This document shows, piece after piece, positions 21,991 through 29,529 of a stretch of 64,000 nucleotides of DNA. Position 1 is the first letter of the stretch. The number at the start of each line of letters is the position of its first letter. The notes beneath the pieces are model-generated. The model saw only the letters and a list, made by a program, of their open reading frames with translations, had not been told where the DNA came from and ran no database searches. The stretch comes from Alphaproteobacteria bacterium (lineage in GTDB: Bacteria > Pseudomonadota > Alphaproteobacteria > GCA-2746255). The position numbers and the translations under genes were made by a program. The stretch covers positions 1,408,001-1,472,000 of the forward strand of contig OZ252220.1 in assembly GCA_965249135.1 (NCBI GenBank), in the 5' to 3' direction.

Positions 21991-23778
21991 TTAAGGCAGC
22001 GCGAAGATGAAGAGCATCGCGCCGGGCTTCACCTTCTCGAGCCCTTTCGTTCCGCTGATGAACCACTTCGGCCAGGAGCCACCGAGACCCACGGTAAGCG
22101 CCACATATTGCTTGCCATCGATCGCGTAGGTGACGGGCGGCGCGTTGATGCCGGCGCCCGTCTCGAACCGCCAGAGCTCGTCCAAGGACTTCCCGTCAAG
22201 CGCCACGAAGGCCCCTTCCGGATAGCCGACGAAGACGAGGTCGCCTGCCGTCGCCAGCACGCCGCCCAGCATCGGATAGGTAGTTTCCTCTTTGGCGGTG
22301 ACCTTGCCCGTCGTAACGTCGACCGCCGTCACGCTGCCGGTGATCGCGCTGGGTTGTTTCGGCCCGCCGCCGGTGAACCATTCCCGATGCTTATGGTCGC
22401 CCGGATTGACGACCGTGAGATCGAGCTGGTTGCAGCTTTCGATGACCGGGATGTAGACGACTTTACGTTCCGGGTTGTAGGCCATCGGTGGCCAGTTCTT
22501 GCCGCCCATGTTGCCGGGGCAGGGATTGCCCGTCTTGTTCTCGCGGGTCGCCGCCGAGCCGGGCTCGTAAGGTTGCACGTCCTTCTCGGGATCGTAGGAG
22601 AGTGGCCGGCCCGTCTTCGGATCGAGCCCCTTCGTCCAGTTCAGTTTCTTCACGAACTGGGTTGCCCAGAGGAAGGCCCCGCTCACACGGTCGAGCGCAT
22701 AGACGTAGCCGTTGCGGTCCGCATGGAGGGCCATCTTCTTGTCGTCAATATCGACGAGGATGTGTTCGGAGGTCGCGTCGTAGTCGAAGGGATCGTTCGG
22801 CGTGTACTGGAAGTGCCACTTGATCTCGCCGGTTGAGGCGTCCAGTGCGAGTGCGCTGGCCGAGTAGAGGTTGTCGCCGGGGCGGTAGGCGTTGTCCCAA
22901 TCCGGGCCCGGATTGCCGGTCCCCCAGTAGATGAGGTCGAGGTCCGCATCGTAAGTGCCGGTGACCCAGGTCGATCCGCCGCCCGTCTTCCAGGCCTCGT
23001 GGTCGTCCTTCCAGGTCTCGTGGCCCGGCTCGCCGGGGGCGGGGATCGTGTAGGTGCGCCAGACTTCCTCGCCGGTCAGCAGATCCGTCGCCGCCAGCCA
23101 GCCACGGATCCCGTACTCGCCGCCGGCAATTCCGGTAATCGCCAGGTTCTTGACGATCAAGGGCGCCGCCGTGATCGTCTCGGACTTGTCGGGATCGGCA
23201 ACCTTGCGCTCCCAGATCAGCTCGCCCGTCTTCTTGTCGAGAACCAGCAACCGCCCGTCGAGGACGTGGGAGACGACCTTATTATTCCACAGGGCGATGC
23301 CCCGGTTGTTGACGCCGCAGCAGGTGACGTTGCCGGCCCAGTCGCGGTCGATCTCGGGATCGTATTCCCAGACGAGGCGGGGGATCCCATCCCGCACATC
23401 GAATTTGTAGACGGTGCCCCAGCCATCGGGGATGTATAGGTAGCCATCCTCGACGATCGGGGTCGCCTCATAGCCCGCGAAGGGCCAGATGCCACCCGCC
23501 TGGATGCCACCCAACGCTATCGTGCCGGTGACCTGCAGTTCCTTGACGTTCTTGCGGTTGATCGCGTCGAGGCGCGAGAAGCGGTGGGCCTCGTAATTGC
23601 CGTGATGGGTGATCCAGTTTTCCGGCTCCTTGTAGGTATTCATGAGCCGTTCGTTCGTCACCTGGGCGACCGCACCCTCCATTTCACCGCTCTCGATGAA
23701 GAGCGCAAGCGCCAGCAAGGCGGCGCCTATAACGGCCACGATCCAAGGCCAGTTTTTCGTGCTTGTCTCGGACGTCAT
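21991..23778 (-). CDS. PQQ-dependent alcohol/methanol-family dehydrogenase
   Basis: Signal/TM segment, vicinal CC (TCCGVNNRG), GGEYGIRG, WGTGNPGP, PNDPFDYD, Trp-docking repeats; start at ATG 23778. Confidence 0.92.
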   Translation of the reverse strand: MTSETSTKNWPWIVAVIGAALLALALFIESGEMEGAVAQVTNERLMNTYKEPENWITHHGNYEAHRFSRLDAINRKNVKELQVTGTIALGGIQAGGIWPFAGYEATPIVEDGYLYIPDGWGTVYKFDVRDGIPRLVWEYDPEIDRDWAGNVTCCGVNNRGIALWNNKVVSHVLDGRLLVLDKKTGELIWERKVADPDKSETITAAPLIVKNLAITGIAGGEYGIRGWLAATDLLTGEEVWRTYTIPAPGEPGHETWKDDHEAWKTGGGSTWVTGTYDADLDLIYWGTGNPGPDWDNAYRPGDNLYSASALALDASTGEIKWHFQYTPNDPFDYDATSEHILVDIDDKKMALHADRNGYVYALDRVSGAFLWATQFVKKLNWTKGLDPKTGRPLSYDPEKDVQPYEPGSAATRENKTGNPCPGNMGGKNWPPMAYNPERKVVYIPVIESCNQLDLTVVNPGDHKHREWFTGGGPKQPSAITGSVTAVDVTTGKVTAKEETTYPMLGGVLATAGDLVFVGYPEGAFVALDGKSLDELWRFETGAGINAPPVTYAIDGKQYVALTVGLGGSWPKWFISGTKGLEKVKPGAMLFIFALP

Positions 23779-24060
23779 GGATGTCCCCCCGCCTTCGTTC
23801 GATTTTTTCCGGCCCAAACGGCCGGGCCTGATTTCTTCCATGATGCCGCCTTCTCGGTAGGCTGCCAAGCCCCCTTTTAGCCTGCGGGCCCACGGCGAAA
23901 ACTGCCGGTTTTTAAGGCCATGCGCGCCCTTCCGGCGCCCATTTTTCGGTTGAAGAAGGCGGGGCGGCTGGCCCACACTCCCCTTCTTCCGCGCGTCGAG
24001 ACGGCGCGCGGAAGAAAAAGCGAGCGGCCTTAAGCGAGAAGCCTTATAGCTGAGAAAGCG

Positions 24061-25860
24061 ATGAACCGCCAGCAACGCCGAAAGCAGACCCACGCGTCCC
24101 GGCGAAAGGGAAATCCTTCTCGCAGCGACGGTTTCTCGGATCAACGGCTGGACGACGGGCTTCGCCTGCATCAGCGCGGCGAGTTCGAACGGGCCGAAGC
24201 GATTTACAGGAACGTCCTGCGCCAGCAGCCGGACCATCCAGAGGCACTGCACCTGTTGGGTGTCCTTCTTCATCAAAGAGGCGCCGGCGAGGAGGCGGTT
24301 GCCACCATCGAGCGGGCGCTCGAGAAGGACCCGCAATCGGCGGACGCCACTTACAACCTTGCCGATATCCTGCTCGCCCAAGGCAAGACGGCGGAGGCCG
24401 TCCAACGCTTCCGGCATGCGCTGACACTTCGTCCCGACTTCCCGGAAGCGGCCATCAGCTTAGGCATTGCCCTTCGCAGCCATGGCGAGATGGACCAGGC
24501 TCTTGCCCAGCTTCGCGAGGCGGCGGAGAACTACCCGGATTTCGCGGAGGCCCACTACAATCTCGGCGACACGCTGCGCATCCAAAACGAACTCGGCGAG
24601 GCGAAGGCGGCGTTCGAAAAGGCGCTCGACGTCCGCGCCGATTTCGCGGAAGCCGAGAACAACCTGGCGAGCATCCTGCGCACCGAAGGGGACATCGAGG
24701 GCGCCGCCCGACACATCGAGAACGCCCTTCGGATCAATCCGGATTTTGCCGAGGCCCACAACAACCTCGGCAATATCCGAAAAGCAAAGGGGGTGCTTGA
24801 AGAGGCGATCCCGCATTTCGAAGAGGCCATCCGGCTTCGTCCCGATTTCGCCGAGGCCCACTACAATCTGGGCAACACCTATCTGGCGACGGGCCGGATC
24901 GCGGAAGCAACCCAAGCTTTTAAGAAGGCGCTCGCGCTCAATCCGGATTTCGAGAACGCGCGCGCCAGTCTTTCCGAAGCCCAGCAGCGGCAGGTGCCGC
25001 GCTGGCACTTCGCCATGATGAACGACCGCGCCCGCAACGATGCTTACGACCAGGCGATCCGTGAGGCCATCTCGGAAGATCGGACGGTGCTGGATATCGG
25101 GTCCGGTGCCGGTTTGCTTTCGATGATGGCGGCGTGCGCCGGAGCGAAGCACGTCACTGCCTGCGAGACCGTCGCCCCGATCGCCGAAATGGCCGGCCGC
25201 ATCATCAAGGAAAACGGTCTTTCCGAACGCGTGACGGTCGTGGCGAAGCATTCCTACAATTTGAAGATCGGGGACGACCTTCCCGAGCGGGCCGACGTGA
25301 TGGTGACGGAACTTCTGAACGCCGGTTTTCTCGGCGAGGGAATCCTGCAGGTCATTCAGCATGCGCGAGCGAATCTTTTGAAGCCCGATGCAACGATCAT
25401 CCCGCAGGGTGGCACCGTTTATGCGGCGTTGATCGAGAGCGAGCGCCTCGTCGAAGAGGACCGCGTGAGCGAGGCGGCCGGTTTCGACGTCCGGCCCTTC
25501 AACGAATTTGCGAACGCCGAATATTTGACGAAGCGTCTGAATGCCTACCCGCACCAATTTCTTTCCGAGTCGGTGGAAGTCTTCTCCTTCGACTTCCTGG
25601 GCAAGCCCGCGAAACCGGAGACGAAGGCAATCCCGATCACCGCCACGGCAAGCGGCACCTGCCATGGGATTGTCCTGTGGTTTCGCTTAGAACTGACGGA
25701 CGCGATTTTCATCGAGACGAAGCCACGCGAGGCGGACACCCATTGGCGCCAAGCGATCTATCTCGAGGAAACGCCGCGCAAGCTGCAAACGGGCGAAGGC
25801 TGCCGGCTGCTGGCAAGCCACGATTGCCGTTACATTTCATTGAAACTGGCCGCCGACTGA
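24061..25860 (+). CDS. TPR-repeat protein fused to a protein arginine methyltransferase-like domain
   Basis: About 8 TPRs (PDFAEAHYNLG), then WHFAMMNDRARN, VLDIGSGAGLLS, TELLNAGFLGEG, THWRQ. Confidence 0.82.
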   Translation: MNRQQRRKQTHASRRKGNPSRSDGFSDQRLDDGLRLHQRGEFERAEAIYRNVLRQQPDHPEALHLLGVLLHQRGAGEEAVATIERALEKDPQSADATYNLADILLAQGKTAEAVQRFRHALTLRPDFPEAAISLGIALRSHGEMDQALAQLREAAENYPDFAEAHYNLGDTLRIQNELGEAKAAFEKALDVRADFAEAENNLASILRTEGDIEGAARHIENALRINPDFAEAHNNLGNIRKAKGVLEEAIPHFEEAIRLRPDFAEAHYNLGNTYLATGRIAEATQAFKKALALNPDFENARASLSEAQQRQVPRWHFAMMNDRARNDAYDQAIREAISEDRTVLDIGSGAGLLSMMAACAGAKHVTACETVAPIAEMAGRIIKENGLSERVTVVAKHSYNLKIGDDLPERADVMVTELLNAGFLGEGILQVIQHARANLLKPDATIIPQGGTVYAALIESERLVEEDRVSEAAGFDVRPFNEFANAEYLTKRLNAYPHQFLSESVEVFSFDFLGKPAKPETKAIPITATASGTCHGIVLWFRLELTDAIFIETKPREADTHWRQAIYLEETPRKLQTGEGCRLLASHDCRYISLKLAAD

Positions 25861-25924
25861 CCGGTTTGGACGGCCGATCTCGCGAAAGCATTGGGCACGC
25901 AAAAGCATTGGGAGAGGTTAAGAC

Positions 25925-27157
25925 ATGGCAAGCCGGCCTGAAAAAATCGTCTTCGAAGGCGCCCATGGATTGAAGCTTGCGGCGCGGCTCGACCGTCCGA
26001 AGGGCCCTCCCAAGGCCTATGCGCTTTTCGCCCATTGCTTCACCTGCACGAAAGACATCTTCGCCGCCTCGCACATCGCAAGCGCGCTTGCCGAAAGCGG
26101 AATTGCCGTGCTGCGCTTCGATTTCACCGGCTTAGGCAGCAGCGAAGGCGAGTTCAAAAACACGAATTTCACGTCGAACGTCGAGGATCTCGTGGCCGCC
26201 GCGGACTACCTTCGAGCTGAGCTCAAAGCACCGAAAATCCTGATCGGTCACAGCCTGGGCGGTGCGGCGGTGCTGGTCGCGGCAAGCCGCATCAAGGAAG
26301 CAATTGCCGTGGTAACCATCGGTGCGCCTTCCAGCCCCGACCATGTGAGCCACCTCTTCGAGGGCGGGCTCGACGCCATCGCCGAGCATGGCGAGGCCGA
26401 AGTGCGCATTGGCGGGCGGCCCTTCCGCATTCAGAAACATTTCCTGGAGGACATCGCTTCCCAGAACATGAGGGAAGCGATCGGGTCATTGAAACGGGCG
26501 CTGCTGGTTTTCCATTCGCCGGTCGACCAAACGGTCGGCATCGAGAACGCGCAGGAGATCTTCGTCGCGGCGAAACATCCGAAAAGTTTCATCTCGCTCG
26601 AGGATGCGGATCACCTGCTCGGCAAAAAGAAGGACGCGACCTACGTCGCCGAAACCCTTGCCGCCTGGGTGAAGCGCTATCTCGACGGGGAAAGGGAGGG
26701 CGAAACGGCGCCCAAGCTGGACGCGGCGGAGGGCACCGTGCTTGTCGCGGAGACGGGGACGGGCAAGTTTGCGAACGTCATTCAAACGGGCCTCCACCGC
26801 GTCGGCGCCGACGAGCCGGTCGCCTTTGGCGGCACGGATACGGGGCCGTCGCCCTATGACCTTCTGCTGGCGAGCCTCGGCGCCTGCACATCGATGACGC
26901 TTCGCATGTACGCGGACCGGAAGAAGTGGCCACTTGAGAAGGTGGCCGTCACGTTACGCCACCAGAAGATTCATGCAAAAGACTGTCGGGACTGCGAGAC
27001 GAAGGGGGGAAAGGTCGACGAGATCGAGCGCGAAATCGAAGTCGAAGGCCCGCTCGACGCCGAGCAGCGTGAAAGGCTGCTGGAAATCGCCGACAAATGC
27101 CCGGTCCATCGCACGCTCCATTCGGAGGTTCGCATCGTCTCGCGATTGAGCGAATAG
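25925..27157 (+). CDS. Bifunctional alpha/beta hydrolase-OsmC family protein
   Basis: AHCFTC, GHSLGG; C-terminal ADEP...LGACT...KCPVHRTL. Confidence 0.92.
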   Translation: MASRPEKIVFEGAHGLKLAARLDRPKGPPKAYALFAHCFTCTKDIFAASHIASALAESGIAVLRFDFTGLGSSEGEFKNTNFTSNVEDLVAAADYLRAELKAPKILIGHSLGGAAVLVAASRIKEAIAVVTIGAPSSPDHVSHLFEGGLDAIAEHGEAEVRIGGRPFRIQKHFLEDIASQNMREAIGSLKRALLVFHSPVDQTVGIENAQEIFVAAKHPKSFISLEDADHLLGKKKDATYVAETLAAWVKRYLDGEREGETAPKLDAAEGTVLVAETGTGKFANVIQTGLHRVGADEPVAFGGTDTGPSPYDLLLASLGACTSMTLRMYADRKKWPLEKVAVTLRHQKIHAKDCRDCETKGGKVDEIEREIEVEGPLDAEQRERLLEIADKCPVHRTLHSEVRIVSRLSE

Positions 27158-27162
27158 TTCTT

Positions 27163-27993
27163 TCAGGCAATCTCGCGCAGAAGCCCGATGCCGGCTTCGC
27201 AGTCCACGTAACGAAGCCGGTAACACGCGCCGGCCTCCGCGATCTTCAGGAGGCGTTGCAGCTTCGTTTCCGCATCGATTCCTTGAGTGAAATACCGCCC
27301 CATGAGATCGCGAAGCACCTCGCTCTTGCCGATCGCCTCCATGCTGGCGGAGCCCGAGCTCATCCGATCGAGGAGCACGATGGCTAAAATGGGCGCCGCC
27401 TCGCCAAACTCGGCGATCTCGCCCGGCCTCAAGCCCACGAACCGTCCATAGTCGTTGCCGAGCACCTCGCGTTCACGCAGGAAGCCGCAAAACCCATCCG
27501 TTACGTTTTCGGGTAGCGGCAGACGAAGCCTGGGCGCTACGCCAAAGGAAAGGGCGCTTCCTTCGCTTTCGCGCACCGCCAGCACGTCGTCCGTGAAAAC
27601 GGCCGCACCCGCCGCCGCCCCGTGGACCGCCATCGTGCTCTTGCCGACCTTGCCGCTGGCCGGGAAGACGAGCAGCCCGCCCTCCCACCTCATGGCCGCG
27701 GCATGAATGCAAAGCAGCTCGGGATTGGCGGCGATGAAGGCGATATAGAGTTCGGCAAAGAAGCCCGCGACGGCTTCGTAATCGTCGATGTAGTCGTAAG
27801 GCGCGGAATCGAGCCCTTGGGATTCGACCCGGTAGCCCGTCCGCGTCCGCTCAAGCACGACGACCGGGTTGAGCGGATCGCCATCCCACGCCCCGTTCGG
27901 CCAGGTCGCGATCGGGGCGTGAAGGAAGGGCAGGAGGTGATCGCAGCCTGCGAAGGAAATCGGGGACGGGACCCCTTCGAAACGAAGCAGCAT
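27163..27993 (-). CDS. HPr-kinase-related P-loop Ser/Thr kinase-like protein
   Basis: IHAAA...FPASGKVGKST (Walker A), FTDDVL acidic pair, the HprK-like layout seen in peptide-modifying kinases. Confidence 0.72.
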   Translation of the reverse strand: MLLRFEGVPSPISFAGCDHLLPFLHAPIATWPNGAWDGDPLNPVVVLERTRTGYRVESQGLDSAPYDYIDDYEAVAGFFAELYIAFIAANPELLCIHAAAMRWEGGLLVFPASGKVGKSTMAVHGAAAGAAVFTDDVLAVRESEGSALSFGVAPRLRLPLPENVTDGFCGFLREREVLGNDYGRFVGLRPGEIAEFGEAAPILAIVLLDRMSSGSASMEAIGKSEVLRDLMGRYFTQGIDAETKLQRLLKIAEAGACYRLRYVDCEAGIGLLREIA

Positions 27994-28034
27994 GGGTTAG
28001 AAAGGCGGGCTTAAGCCGGCAACCGGAAGCGCGA

Positions 28035-28244
28035 TCAGGAAGGCCGGCTCGGCCGCGTCGGCCGGGTGGGCCGGGTGGGCCGCGTCGGACAGGACTTCCC
28101 CTTGCCGCAGGGCGAGGGCTTGATCTTCGCCATCGCGCTGCCGTCGAGATGAAGCAACACCGGCGCCGTGTAGACGACCGCCGCCCCGACGCCTAATCGG
28201 GCGAGTGCCTTGCGGCGATTGATTTCCTTGGTTTCCGATGCCAT
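28035..28244 (-). CDS. Small secreted/precursor peptide with twin-arginine-like leader and (P-T/S-R) repeat tail
   Basis: NRRKAL + hydrophobic stretch + AMA; core KIKPSPCGKGKSCPTRPTRPTRPTRPSRPS; repeat codons vary synonymously. Confidence 0.75.
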   Translation of the reverse strand: MASETKEINRRKALARLGVGAAVVYTAPVLLHLDGSAMAKIKPSPCGKGKSCPTRPTRPTRPTRPSRPS

Positions 28245-28371
28245 CGCTTTTTACCCAATCCCGGTTACGTGGGGTCCGCCTGCCGATTCGCAACAAGTCT
28301 ACCCCCCATTTCTTTATATCCCATTTCCGCAGGCACGAAAAACGCCGTCCCCATTAACCATGTTTTTCCTT

Positions 28372-29529
28372 TTAATTCAAAGCCTCCTCAAGGATGTAGA
28401 TCAACTCGACCACCGGTTTCCCGAACTCGAGGCGCACGGTTTCCCGGCCCGCCTCGCGAAGGTGAAACCGTCCCTTCGCCAACGCCGGCAGGTAGTCCGG
28501 ATGATGGGCGTAACGGCCGGAAGGCTGAAGGGTGAACCCTTCGTCCTTCCCCTTCTCGAGCGAGAGCGCAAAAAGCCCCCCTGCACGCAATGCTTGGAAG
28601 GCAGCCGTCATAAGCGCTTCGAGATCGCCGAAATAGACCAGCGAATCGCAGGCGATCAGAAGGTCGTAAGCCGGCTCGGGCGCCCGCTCGAGGAAGGTAA
28701 GCGCGTCTTCCACATGGAGCGCGTCGTAAAGGCCACGCGCCTTGGCCCGTGAGATCATTTCCTGCGAAAGGTCCACCCCCGAAAGCGTGTTCGCCAGTTC
28801 CCGAAACGGAATGCCTGCGAGCCCCGTCCCGCAGCCGATGTCGAGAATGTCGAGGGGGCCCGAGTTTCGGTCGACGACGCGCCGGACGTATTCAAAGAGG
28901 ATTTCCGGCCCGCGGTAGTTCAGGCTTTTGCAAAGATGTTCGTCGAAGATTTCGGCGTAAACGTCAAAATAGTTCTACACATAGGCTGCCGGCGGGCGTG
29001 GCGGCATTTCTCCTTCTCCGAGTGCGGCGATCATGAAGCCCACCTCGACGTCATCCGGATCCAGCTCCTGGCAGCGGCGATAGCAACGTAGCGCTTCTGG
29101 CTTGCGGTTCAGGTGACTGAACGTTTCACCAAGCCGCCAATGGGCTTTTTCATAATTGGGCTTAAGCGCGATCGCGCGCTCGAAGAAGGGGGCGGCACGT
29201 TCATGCTGGCCTTCCATCGTCAGCGCCTTTCCGATCGCATAGGCGTTGCGTGCTTCGACCCTTGTGCGTCGATTATGAATCTCGGCCGCTTCGTCCTTGC
29301 TTCCTTGTTCCACCAGTAGGCTTTCCAGGGCTTCAAGGGCCGCCAGGTGGCGGGGCACGCGCGTAAGCAGGTGGCGGGGCACGCGCGTAAGAAGGTCCCG
29401 GTAGCCGGCGACGGCGTCGGCAAGACGGCCCGCTTGACGATGCTGCTCGGCAAGGTAATAAGCCTGCGCCTCGTCGGGTTCTGCCGCGTCCGACGGCCCC
29501 AAGGACTTACTCGACGCCTTCGGCGTCAT
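28372..29529 (-). pseudogene. TPR-containing SAM methyltransferase interrupted by in-frame TAG at 28975-28977
   Basis: Reading continues in frame: PPAAYV*NYFDVYAEIFDEHL...LDIGCGTGL...GVDLSQEM, joining ORF 28372-28776. Confidence 0.85.
29344..29391. repeat. Exact 24-bp tandem duplication (encodes LLTRVPRH twice)
   Basis: caggtggcggggcacgcgcgtaag x2. Confidence 0.92.

Follow-up and report, generated by a model that had tools for sequence, protein, structure and literature searches.

Methylation of arginine by the protein arginine methyltransferases (PRMTs) is treated as a eukaryotic regulatory system, and all solved PRMTs are, to our knowledge, dimers or tandem-module pseudo-dimers. Two branches are of particular relevance here, namely PRMT7, which yields monomethylarginine only, and PRMT9, which yields symmetric dimethylarginine and has SF3B2 as a substrate; neither the PRMT9 product and substrate nor the PRMT7 product type can be carried over to the protein described below. 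A further point of comparison is O-GlcNAc transferase (OGT), in which a row of Asn residues in the tetratricopeptide repeat (TPR) domain binds extended substrate peptides, a property that serves here as an analogy only. Scattered methyl-arginine sites have also been reported in bacterial proteomes. This report deals with one gene in a stretch of 64,000 nucleotides (the window) from an alphaproteobacterium (assembly GCA_965249135.1, contig OZ252220.1, positions 1,408,001 to 1,472,000), the product of which, termed TPR-PRMT, joins a TPR array to one PRMT module. Sequence comparison and structural modeling confirm it as a real PRMT-fold protein with its catalytic hallmarks intact and with PRMT7 and PRMT9 as its nearest described relatives. 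It is probably a cytoplasmic, S-adenosylmethionine (SAM)-dependent protein (or peptide) arginine N-methyltransferase of the PRMT7/PRMT9 branch, in which the methyl transfer itself, the choice of arginine as acceptor, the function of the TPRs and the location in the cytoplasm are inferred.

PRMT-like proteins from bacteria have been described before. The passage on them in Aravind et al. (PMC3417536) derives the eukaryotic PRMTs from a bacterial radiation, and the relevant part of a review of bacterial methyltransferases names just predicted PRMTs from Legionella, with function unknown, and Rv1988 (PMC10117894). In the literature searched, no dedicated PRMT-type writer of regulatory protein arginine methylation in bacteria was found.

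Catalytic Module

The TPR-PRMT gene (P0001) is an open reading frame (ORF) at 24061-25860 on the plus strand, with an ATG start and 599 residues, and has the following features.

24061..24141, plus strand: basic N-terminal tail, residues 1-27 (MNRQQRRKQTHASRRKG...), predicted to be disordered and without a hydrophobic signal segment
24142..24957, plus strand: eight 34-residue TPRs, residues 28-299, in unbroken register and near the TPR consensus
24958..24993, plus strand: capping/linker helix, residues 300-311, from the last TPR to the catalytic module (helix 298-311 in the model; within a collinear HMMER alignment to bovine PRMT9)
25003..25038, plus strand: WHFAMMNDRARN, residues 315-326, N-terminal helix of the PRMT module, aligning to YADMLHDKDRN of PRMT7 and WHFIMLNDTKRN of PRMT9
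25087..25113, plus strand: motif I VLDIGSGAG, residues 343-351, the SAM-binding GxGxG, aligning to VLDIGTGTG of PRMT7 and PRMT9
25165..25167, plus strand: E369, post-I acidic residue, aligning to the Glu of AIE (PRMT7) and ACE (PRMT9)
25306..25341, plus strand: double-E loop TELLNAGFLGEG, residues 416-427, with E417 and E426 eight residues apart, aligned by counting to E144 and E153 of mouse PRMT7
25411..25857, plus strand: PRMT beta-barrel, residues 451-599 (PF22528 over residues 451-582, strands in the model, and Foldseek and VIA-align matches to PRMT structures)
25441..25512, plus strand: dimerization arm, residues 461-484, two short helices (461-467 and 478-484 in the models) inserted in the beta-barrel
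25735..25752, plus strand: THW loop DTHWRQ, residues 559-564 (T560-H561-W562), aligning to DHW of PRMT7

Residues 312-599 form a single PRMT catalytic module, which contains the features that define the superfamily: GxGxG with the post-I Glu, the double-E loop, the THW loop and a C-terminal beta-barrel. Pfam detects PF22528 (PRMT_C) at 47.1 bits (cut-off 27) beside the PrmA-like Rossmann domain PF06325, and each motif was aligned by HMMER to its own counterpart in PRMT7 and PRMT9. The N-terminal helix is the element that covers the cofactor pocket in solved PRMTs, and E369 is presumably the residue that contacts the ribose. All of the motifs listed in the original prediction, which had been made from the sequence without database searches, are present at their places.

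A phmmer search of the PDB with residues 301-599 (299 residues) gave mouse PRMT7 as the top match (E 4.1e-52), its module 1 accounting for 118 bits over query residues 11-291 of 299, followed by PRMT9 (E 1.1e-46 to 4.5e-44), Trypanosoma brucei PRMT7 (TbPRMT7; E 4.5e-35) and PRMT1/type I enzymes (E about 1e-22 to 2e-22). The catalytic-domain model, built on 35 sequences, has a mean predicted local distance difference test (pLDDT) of 93.8 and a predicted template-modeling score (pTM) of 0.89, and Foldseek ranked its matches in a similar manner, with TbPRMT7 (4m38, E 1.1e-29, TM 0.83), human PRMT9 (9ay9, TM 0.86) and mouse PRMT7 before PRMT1, PRMT3, PRMT6 and CARM1 (about E 1e-24). Superposition on 9ay9 by VIA-align covered 287 residues at a root-mean-square deviation (rmsd) of 2.2 Å (Z 33.4). 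The AlphaFold and Foldseek comparison that had been proposed as a check has thus matched PRMT7/9 (TM 0.83-0.86) and then type I PRMTs, and because the beta-barrel is found both by Pfam and in the model, the absent barrel that had been named as grounds for refutation does not refute the assignment.

Predicted Homodimer

The catalytic domain was predicted to form a homodimer with a score of 0.77 (0.78, 0.77 and 0.76 in individual runs), as against a best score of 0.00 in three controls; of the proteins whose structures were solved as pairs, 20 of 30 attained this mark, and of those solved as single chains, 1 of 23. Individual runs have at least 82% of contacts in common and a partner pLDDT of at least 89, and the predicted interface sets the arm (domain residues 165-184, that is, residues 465-484 of the protein) against the Rossmann helices of the second copy. 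This head-to-tail pairing, as modeled, is the classical PRMT arrangement, and dimerization through the arm, a further hallmark of the superfamily, is found here by prediction only. Because PRMT dimers have already been solved, the result may partly mirror likeness to, or memory of, known complexes.

TPR Array and Its Junction with the Catalytic Module

The N-terminal half holds exactly eight TPRs by repeat register, by Pfam TPR_11 (eight stretches, E 1.1e-53) and by the full-length AlphaFold model, which sharpens the earlier count of about eight. In this model (pLDDT 92.3, pTM 0.77) the array consists of eight helical hairpins with a capping helix at residues 298-311, and the N-terminal tail falls below a pLDDT of 50 at residues 1-6 and 8-22. 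Five of the eight repeats (TPRs 3, 5, 6, 7 and 8) carry Asn at their position 4, and phmmer matches the array to consensus-designed TPR proteins and to the TPR domain of OGT with E-values of 1e-75 to 7e-70.

Against bovine PRMT9 (8rbk), HMMER gave one collinear alignment that extends from the final two TPRs across the junction and on into the catalytic domain (residues 249-441 aligned to chain 70-263, the offset shifting by a net 1), together with a second alignment of residues 248-568 against chain 69-422. VIA-align placed model residues 192-599 on chain 24-472, with 396 residues aligned at an rmsd of 5.2 Å (Z 32.1). These sequence and model alignments are suggestive of a PRMT9-type TPR-catalytic junction in TPR-PRMT, with the proviso that TPRs align readily with any TPR.

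Conservation and Selection

Thirty-six full-length TPR-PRMT homologues, picked by length (535-605 residues) from searches of word-indexed and representative proteins, were aligned. Twelve positions are invariant in all 36 (W315, H316, M319, R325, I346, G347, G349, G351, E369, E417, E426 and W562), and H561 is at least 90% conserved in the same set. A second alignment of 35 catalytic domains, which draws on 34 of 37 loci from a scan of species genomes (the partial loci L045 and L047 and L025, a near-copy of L024, were excluded), again has the Glu pair E417/E426 and W562 invariant and E369 in 35 of 35. Some of the invariance of WHFAMMND in this second alignment is artefactual, as the genome scan included the octapeptide among its patterns; natural variants among the homologues include WHFPMLND and WQFAMLAD.

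Both halves of TPR-PRMT are under purifying selection. Against three genus orthologues, the PRMT half has ratios of nonsynonymous to synonymous substitution (dN/dS) of 0.10-0.15 and the TPR half of 0.10-0.13, while the tail is looser at 0.35-0.40; these values are rough because dS is 0.7-1.7. A strain about 98% identical to the window is present in contigs of three other sequencing runs, where no insertion or deletion inside the PRMT gene is among the listed differences; 80 further single-letter differences lie outside that list. One run agrees with the stretch at every position and may be where it came from.

Proposed Mechanism

In the mechanism that we favor, the Rossmann half would bind SAM through GxGxG (residues 347-351) and E369, and the guanidinium of the substrate Arg side chain would be clamped between E417 and E426, under H561/W562. 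Two single-module chains would pair head to tail, each placing its arm (residues 461-484) on the Rossmann helices of the partner, to give a PRMT-type ring-shaped dimer. By analogy with OGT, the eight-TPR solenoid may recruit the substrate, probably an extended polypeptide, and feed it to the active-site ring.

Distribution and Phylogeny of the Bacterial Family

TPR-PRMT is a further member of a large, previously noted bacterial family. With the catalytic domain as query, 1.84 billion representative proteins yielded 10,597 matches at E<=0.001, of which 5,909 reach E<=1e-10 and 967 (50%-identity clusters) reach E<=1e-30. Over 100 residues precede the match in 122 of the 150 best representatives. 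A word-indexed search restricted to proteins of 329-1049 residues gave 231 matching proteins; among the 120 of these that were listed, 70 have TPR Pfam domains and 50 do not. Named carriers include metagenome-assembled genomes of Alphaproteobacteria and Magnetococcales and Pseudanabaena sp. PCC 6802, the TPR-PRMT of which (P0014) is 50% identical, and stand-alone forms are named from Streptosporangium, Micromonospora and Solihabitans. The members appear in databases as "tetratricopeptide repeat protein", as "50S ribosomal protein L11 methyltransferase" and, at JGI, as "type II protein arginine methyltransferase". The species-genome scan gave 37 loci, including ones from Oligoflexia, Micropepsaceae, Streptomyces and a Marinimicrobia bin. 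In genomes of other alphaproteobacterial families, a PRMT match at E<1e-50 was found in 2 of 35, and the PRMT Pfam family was matched in none of 14 control genomes. The nearest relatives are bacterial, at 49-54% identity, as compared with about 30% for eukaryotic PRMT7/9.

The general treatment of PRMTs as eukaryotic, on which the original prediction had relied, is therefore out of date here, given 10,597 and 967 representative matches at the two outer thresholds and bacterial TPR fusions in 70 of the 120 listed homologues, and the rarity that had been claimed for TPR-PRMT was overstated.

A quick 51-row tree, with its root set on the most distant bacterial branch, groups the genus of the window with TPR-PRMTs from Magnetococcales and cyanobacteria at a support of 84 in the Shimodaira-Hasegawa-like approximate likelihood ratio test (SH-aLRT). 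As a lead only, two-module proteins lie within the bacterial radiation, beside Oligoflexia (SH-aLRT 89), and the tree is not readable as bacteria versus eukaryotes.

Two side observations concern the architecture and setting of other family members. Three proteins of about 680-720 residues (P0123, P0125 and P0128) have two tandem PRMT modules without a TPR, and their modules group, inside the bacterial radiation, with P0236 and P0253, which carry TPRs and two modules and have a PRMT9-like look. Distant stand-alone PRMT-like genes, at 30-40% identity, occur at six loci (L032, L039, L042, L043, L044 and L046, from Labedaea, Actinokineospora, three Rhodobacterales bins and Variovorax) and have as a common neighbor a gene for a protein of about 450 residues with the iron-containing redox enzyme domain PF14518 (93 bits), which suggests that these loci are a separate, operon-embedded branch of the family.

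Gene Boundaries and Genomic Context

The start of the PRMT ORF is well fixed because the upstream stop is just nine codons away from the ATG (the whole open frame has 608 residues), and the N-terminus MNRQQRR is conserved in all three genus orthologues compared. The gene is present in one copy in the closed 2.12 Mb genome, has a GC content of 0.617, equal to that of the window, and was found in five of five genus relatives. It is flanked by polA, an ABC ATPase and a pyrroloquinoline quinone (PQQ) dehydrogenase on one side and by hldE and gmhA on the other, and the order of the polA and hldE/gmhA sides is the same in genus relatives. A scan whose consensus may not suit this host gave no convincing promoter 5' of 24061 and no convincing terminator 3' of 25860.

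The PQQ-dependent dehydrogenase, of the methanol/ethanol family (21991-23778, minus strand; TIGR03075, 555 bits), is divergent from the PRMT gene at a distance of 282 nucleotides. Its ORF as listed has 808 residues and reaches 24417, but the gene probably begins at the ATG at 23778 (MTSETSTKNW…), which is preceded by a G-rich ribosome-binding stretch, so that the overlap with the start of the PRMT gene is an ORF-calling artefact. For the region 23900-28300, 12 sequencing runs share at least half of the sampled words with the stretch, and at least part of it is present in a total of 20 rows, which come from 11 coded studies and bear several organism labels; this bacterium or its close strains therefore recur across unrelated sequencing projects. 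No RNA run with the stretch was present among the 24 runs listed.

Downstream of the PRMT gene lie the following genes.

25925-27157, plus strand: alpha/beta-hydrolase-OsmC fusion gene, 65 nucleotides after the PRMT stop
27163-27993, minus strand: HprK-like P-loop protein (TIGR04352, 29.9 bits, cut-off 200; no Pfam match)
28035-28244, minus strand: exported-peptide gene, 69 residues, with a twin-arginine-like leader (NRRKALARLGVGAAVVYTAPVLL) and the tail TRPTRPTRPTRPSRPS
28372-29529, minus strand: TPR plus class I SAM methyltransferase gene on the strand of the peptide cluster, one frame broken by an in-frame TAG at 28975-28977

The peptide gene is, as originally noted, about 2.2 kb downstream of the PRMT gene; it lies on the opposite strand, with two genes between. 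The C-terminal part of the peptide is a triplet repeat, (T/S)-(R/G)-P. In relatives the tail is far longer and alternates between SRP and SGP triplets, and other strains lack 27 nucleotides of the repeat, which points to a fast-evolving, collagen-like R/G-P-S repeat and not to a fixed Arg motif. The HprK-like protein has weak similarity to HprK-related kinases, at 29.9 bits for kinase A and 21.4 bits for kinase B with cut-offs of 200, and it thus falls below the NCBIfam cut-off for the HPr-rel-A system (TIGR04352). Homologues about 30% identical to it are present in two further alphaproteobacterial families, and genome G022 has three copies. The hydrolase-OsmC gene is at the locus in three of six genus genomes (G000, G001 and G002, and absent from G003, G004 and G005), which makes it a variable insertion between the PRMT and HprK-like genes.

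As for the broken methyltransferase gene, the TAG stands in the context …PPAAYV*NYFDVYAEIF…, and the SAM motif LDIGCGTG follows the stop. The codon is Gln in G002 and Lys in G003, where the gene is intact at about 385 residues, and the TAG, which among these genomes is particular to this one, is due to a nonsense mutation or a sequencing error or else marks a read-through site. Within the TPR part (28975-29529), a 24-nucleotide tandem duplication near 29344 (minus strand) gives LLTRVPRH twice; contigs of three other runs lack this duplication and have a 12-nucleotide insertion behind 28881.

Alternative Explanations

The Arg-repeat peptide had been put forward as a tempting, if unproven, substrate, and TPR-PRMT could on that account be a tailoring enzyme for the exported peptide (28035-28244, minus strand), methylating the Arg of the T/S-R-P repeats in cross-talk with the HprK-like kinase. 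The tail of the peptide is indeed Arg-rich, the PRMT gene stands next to the kinase/peptide cluster in five of five genus relatives (directly adjacent in G003, G004 and G005), and the passage cited above ties bacterial PRMT-like enzymes to peptide modification (Aravind et al., PMC3417536). However, the PRMT and cluster genes are convergent on opposite strands and hence not one operon, and an HprK-like or peptide homologue was found at none of the 34 PRMT loci outside the genus, within the locus DNA examined. In the 35 other alphaproteobacterial genomes, good HprK-like matches (G008 and G022) come with no real PRMT and good PRMT matches (G014 and G016) with no good HprK-like protein. The repeat Arg is not conserved (a mix of SRP and SGP) and the repeat number varies among strains; in addition, the cluster has its own TPR-SAM methyltransferase on its own strand, and the PRMT lacks a signal sequence, in contrast to the peptide with its twin-arginine-like export leader. 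Because the whole polA-gmhA stretch is also kept in five of five relatives, the shared neighborhood is close-kin synteny and not evidence of shared function. We therefore do not support the link to the peptide, which we consider very improbable. A genome scan for other RG/RGG-rich substrates matched mostly out-of-frame ORFs in this 62% GC genome.

Somewhat more credible, though still unlikely, is that the PRMT scaffold has been kept for another acceptor, such as free arginine or a guanidino compound, lysine, or a ribosomal or non-ribosomal small peptide of secondary metabolism. The adjacency of the distant stand-alone homologues to the PF14518 enzyme at six loci fits the metabolite or peptide pathways of Aravind et al. 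(PMC3417536), but those loci belong to the most distant branch (30-40% identity) and have no TPRs, and the clade of the window has no such neighbor. The Glu pair that would clamp a guanidinium and the Trp of the THW loop are invariant, and purifying selection acts on the eight-TPR solenoid, which is a module for binding proteins or peptides, to the same degree as on the catalytic half. As to a recent eukaryotic acquisition, contamination or a decaying, functionless gene, the named structural relatives that match best are eukaryotic without exception, and near-identical DNA is found in runs with 11 study labels and several organism labels. Nevertheless, the gene sits inside a closed 2.12 Mb bacterial contig in an order kept in genus relatives, its GC content equals that of the window, and bacterial relatives are nearer (49-54%) than eukaryotic PRMT7/9 (about 30%), while decay is opposed by dN/dS of 0.10-0.15 and by a frame that is intact in all copies seen; these possibilities are very remote.

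Several observations nonetheless weigh against an assignment of TPR-PRMT as a protein arginine methyltransferase of the PRMT7/9 branch. One strain variant changes G427, adjoining E426, to Val. For the TPR-fused clade no neighbor shared across families, which might have hinted at a substrate, was found in 35 loci with greedy longest-ORF calling, where weak sharing could be missed because this procedure took some antisense ORFs in GC-rich loci. At the positions of the acidic D147 and E149 in the double-E loop of PRMT7, which we take to have a role in its RXR preference, TPR-PRMT has N420 and G422 in the phmmer alignment, and a PRMT7-like substrate preference is therefore not to be assumed. The protein reaches no PRMT model in NCBIfam, only a generic TPR end-domain model passing its cut-off, and owing to this lack of a family model NCBI names members only "tetratricopeptide repeat protein" or "L11 methyltransferase". 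No experimental work on TPR-PRMT or its bacterial clade was found in the literature searched, which did not extend to subscription journals and supplements. Finally, the passage in Aravind et al. (PMC3417536) places bacterial PRMT-like domains in peptide-antibiotic biosynthesis, so that some members may act on small peptides and not on proteins.

Significance

The window itself is of modest value, as it adds one more well-preserved member and removes one attractive substrate hypothesis; the interest lies in the biochemistry of the family and in what it may say about how PRMT7/9 originated. This bacterial family, which is large, maintained by selection and equipped with the complete catalytic motifs and a putative substrate-recruiting TPR arm, provides a tractable single-module model of PRMT7/9 chemistry and a handle on where PRMT7/9 came from, and it is a candidate writer for the scattered methyl-arginine sites of bacterial proteomes.

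A bolder and tentative proposal, which we regard as possible and yet rather less than probable, is that the single-module TPR-PRMT homodimer represents the bacterial form ancestral to the eukaryotic PRMT9/PRMT7 architecture. The TPR-catalytic junction would then be homologous to that of PRMT9, the tandem modules of PRMT7/9 would be a fused copy of the dimer, and the family would carry out regulatory protein arginine methylation in free-living bacteria. The PRMT9-collinear junction and the nesting of two-module proteins in the bacterial radiation lend this proposal limited support.

Comparison with Known Systems

TPR-PRMT resembles PRMT9 (bovine, 8rbk; human, 6pdm, 7rbq and 9ay9) more closely than its domains listed alone would indicate; in PRMT9 N-terminal TPRs also stand directly before the PRMT module. 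Both have a double-E loop of the form xAGxxGEG, and PRMT9 TETVDAGLFGEG (DAGLFGEG) is closer in this respect than PRMT7 TELFDTELIGEG (DTELIGEG). There are also clear differences, since PRMT9 has two tandem modules whereas TPR-PRMT ends at residue 599 after one barrel, the aligned N-terminal TPR segment in 8rbk is about 110 residues long as against eight TPRs here, module 1 of PRMT9 has ETCW in place of the canonical DTHW, and identity is about 30%. The PRMT9 architecture originally proposed is therefore borne out in its TPR-then-PRMT order and fails in the number of modules, one and not two. With one module, eight TPRs and about 30% identity, the protein is best filed as PRMT7/9-like and not as a PRMT9 orthologue.

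PRMT7 (T. brucei, 4m36, 4m38 and 5eku; mouse, 4c4a; Caenorhabditis elegans, 3wst) provides the best PDB sequence match (mouse) and the best Foldseek match (TbPRMT7). The TbPRMT7 chains, of 343-390 residues, are single-module like TPR-PRMT, the predicted homodimer of which uses the arm-to-Rossmann interface. However, PRMT7 has no TPRs, and animal PRMT7 consists of two tandem modules; neither the tandem modules nor the acidic D147/E149 positions that mark PRMT7 orthologues were found in TPR-PRMT.

The TPR domain of OGT (1w3b, 7ntf) is similar in its strong TPR match and near-consensus repeats, in being a long solenoid N-terminal to a protein-modifying catalytic domain, and in the Asn that recurs at the same repeat position, but the catalytic domain of OGT is unrelated to the PRMT module. 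Lastly, the bacterial PRMT-like "peptide methylases" in the relevant passage of Aravind et al. (PMC3417536) share with TPR-PRMT their place in a bacterial radiation of PRMT-fold enzymes. The secondary-metabolite operons described there fit the distant stand-alone homologues beside the iron-containing redox enzyme, and that passage differs in making no mention of TPR fusions. The clade of the window has no biosynthetic neighbors and therefore has the appearance of a stand-alone protein modifier, not of a component in an antibiotic operon.

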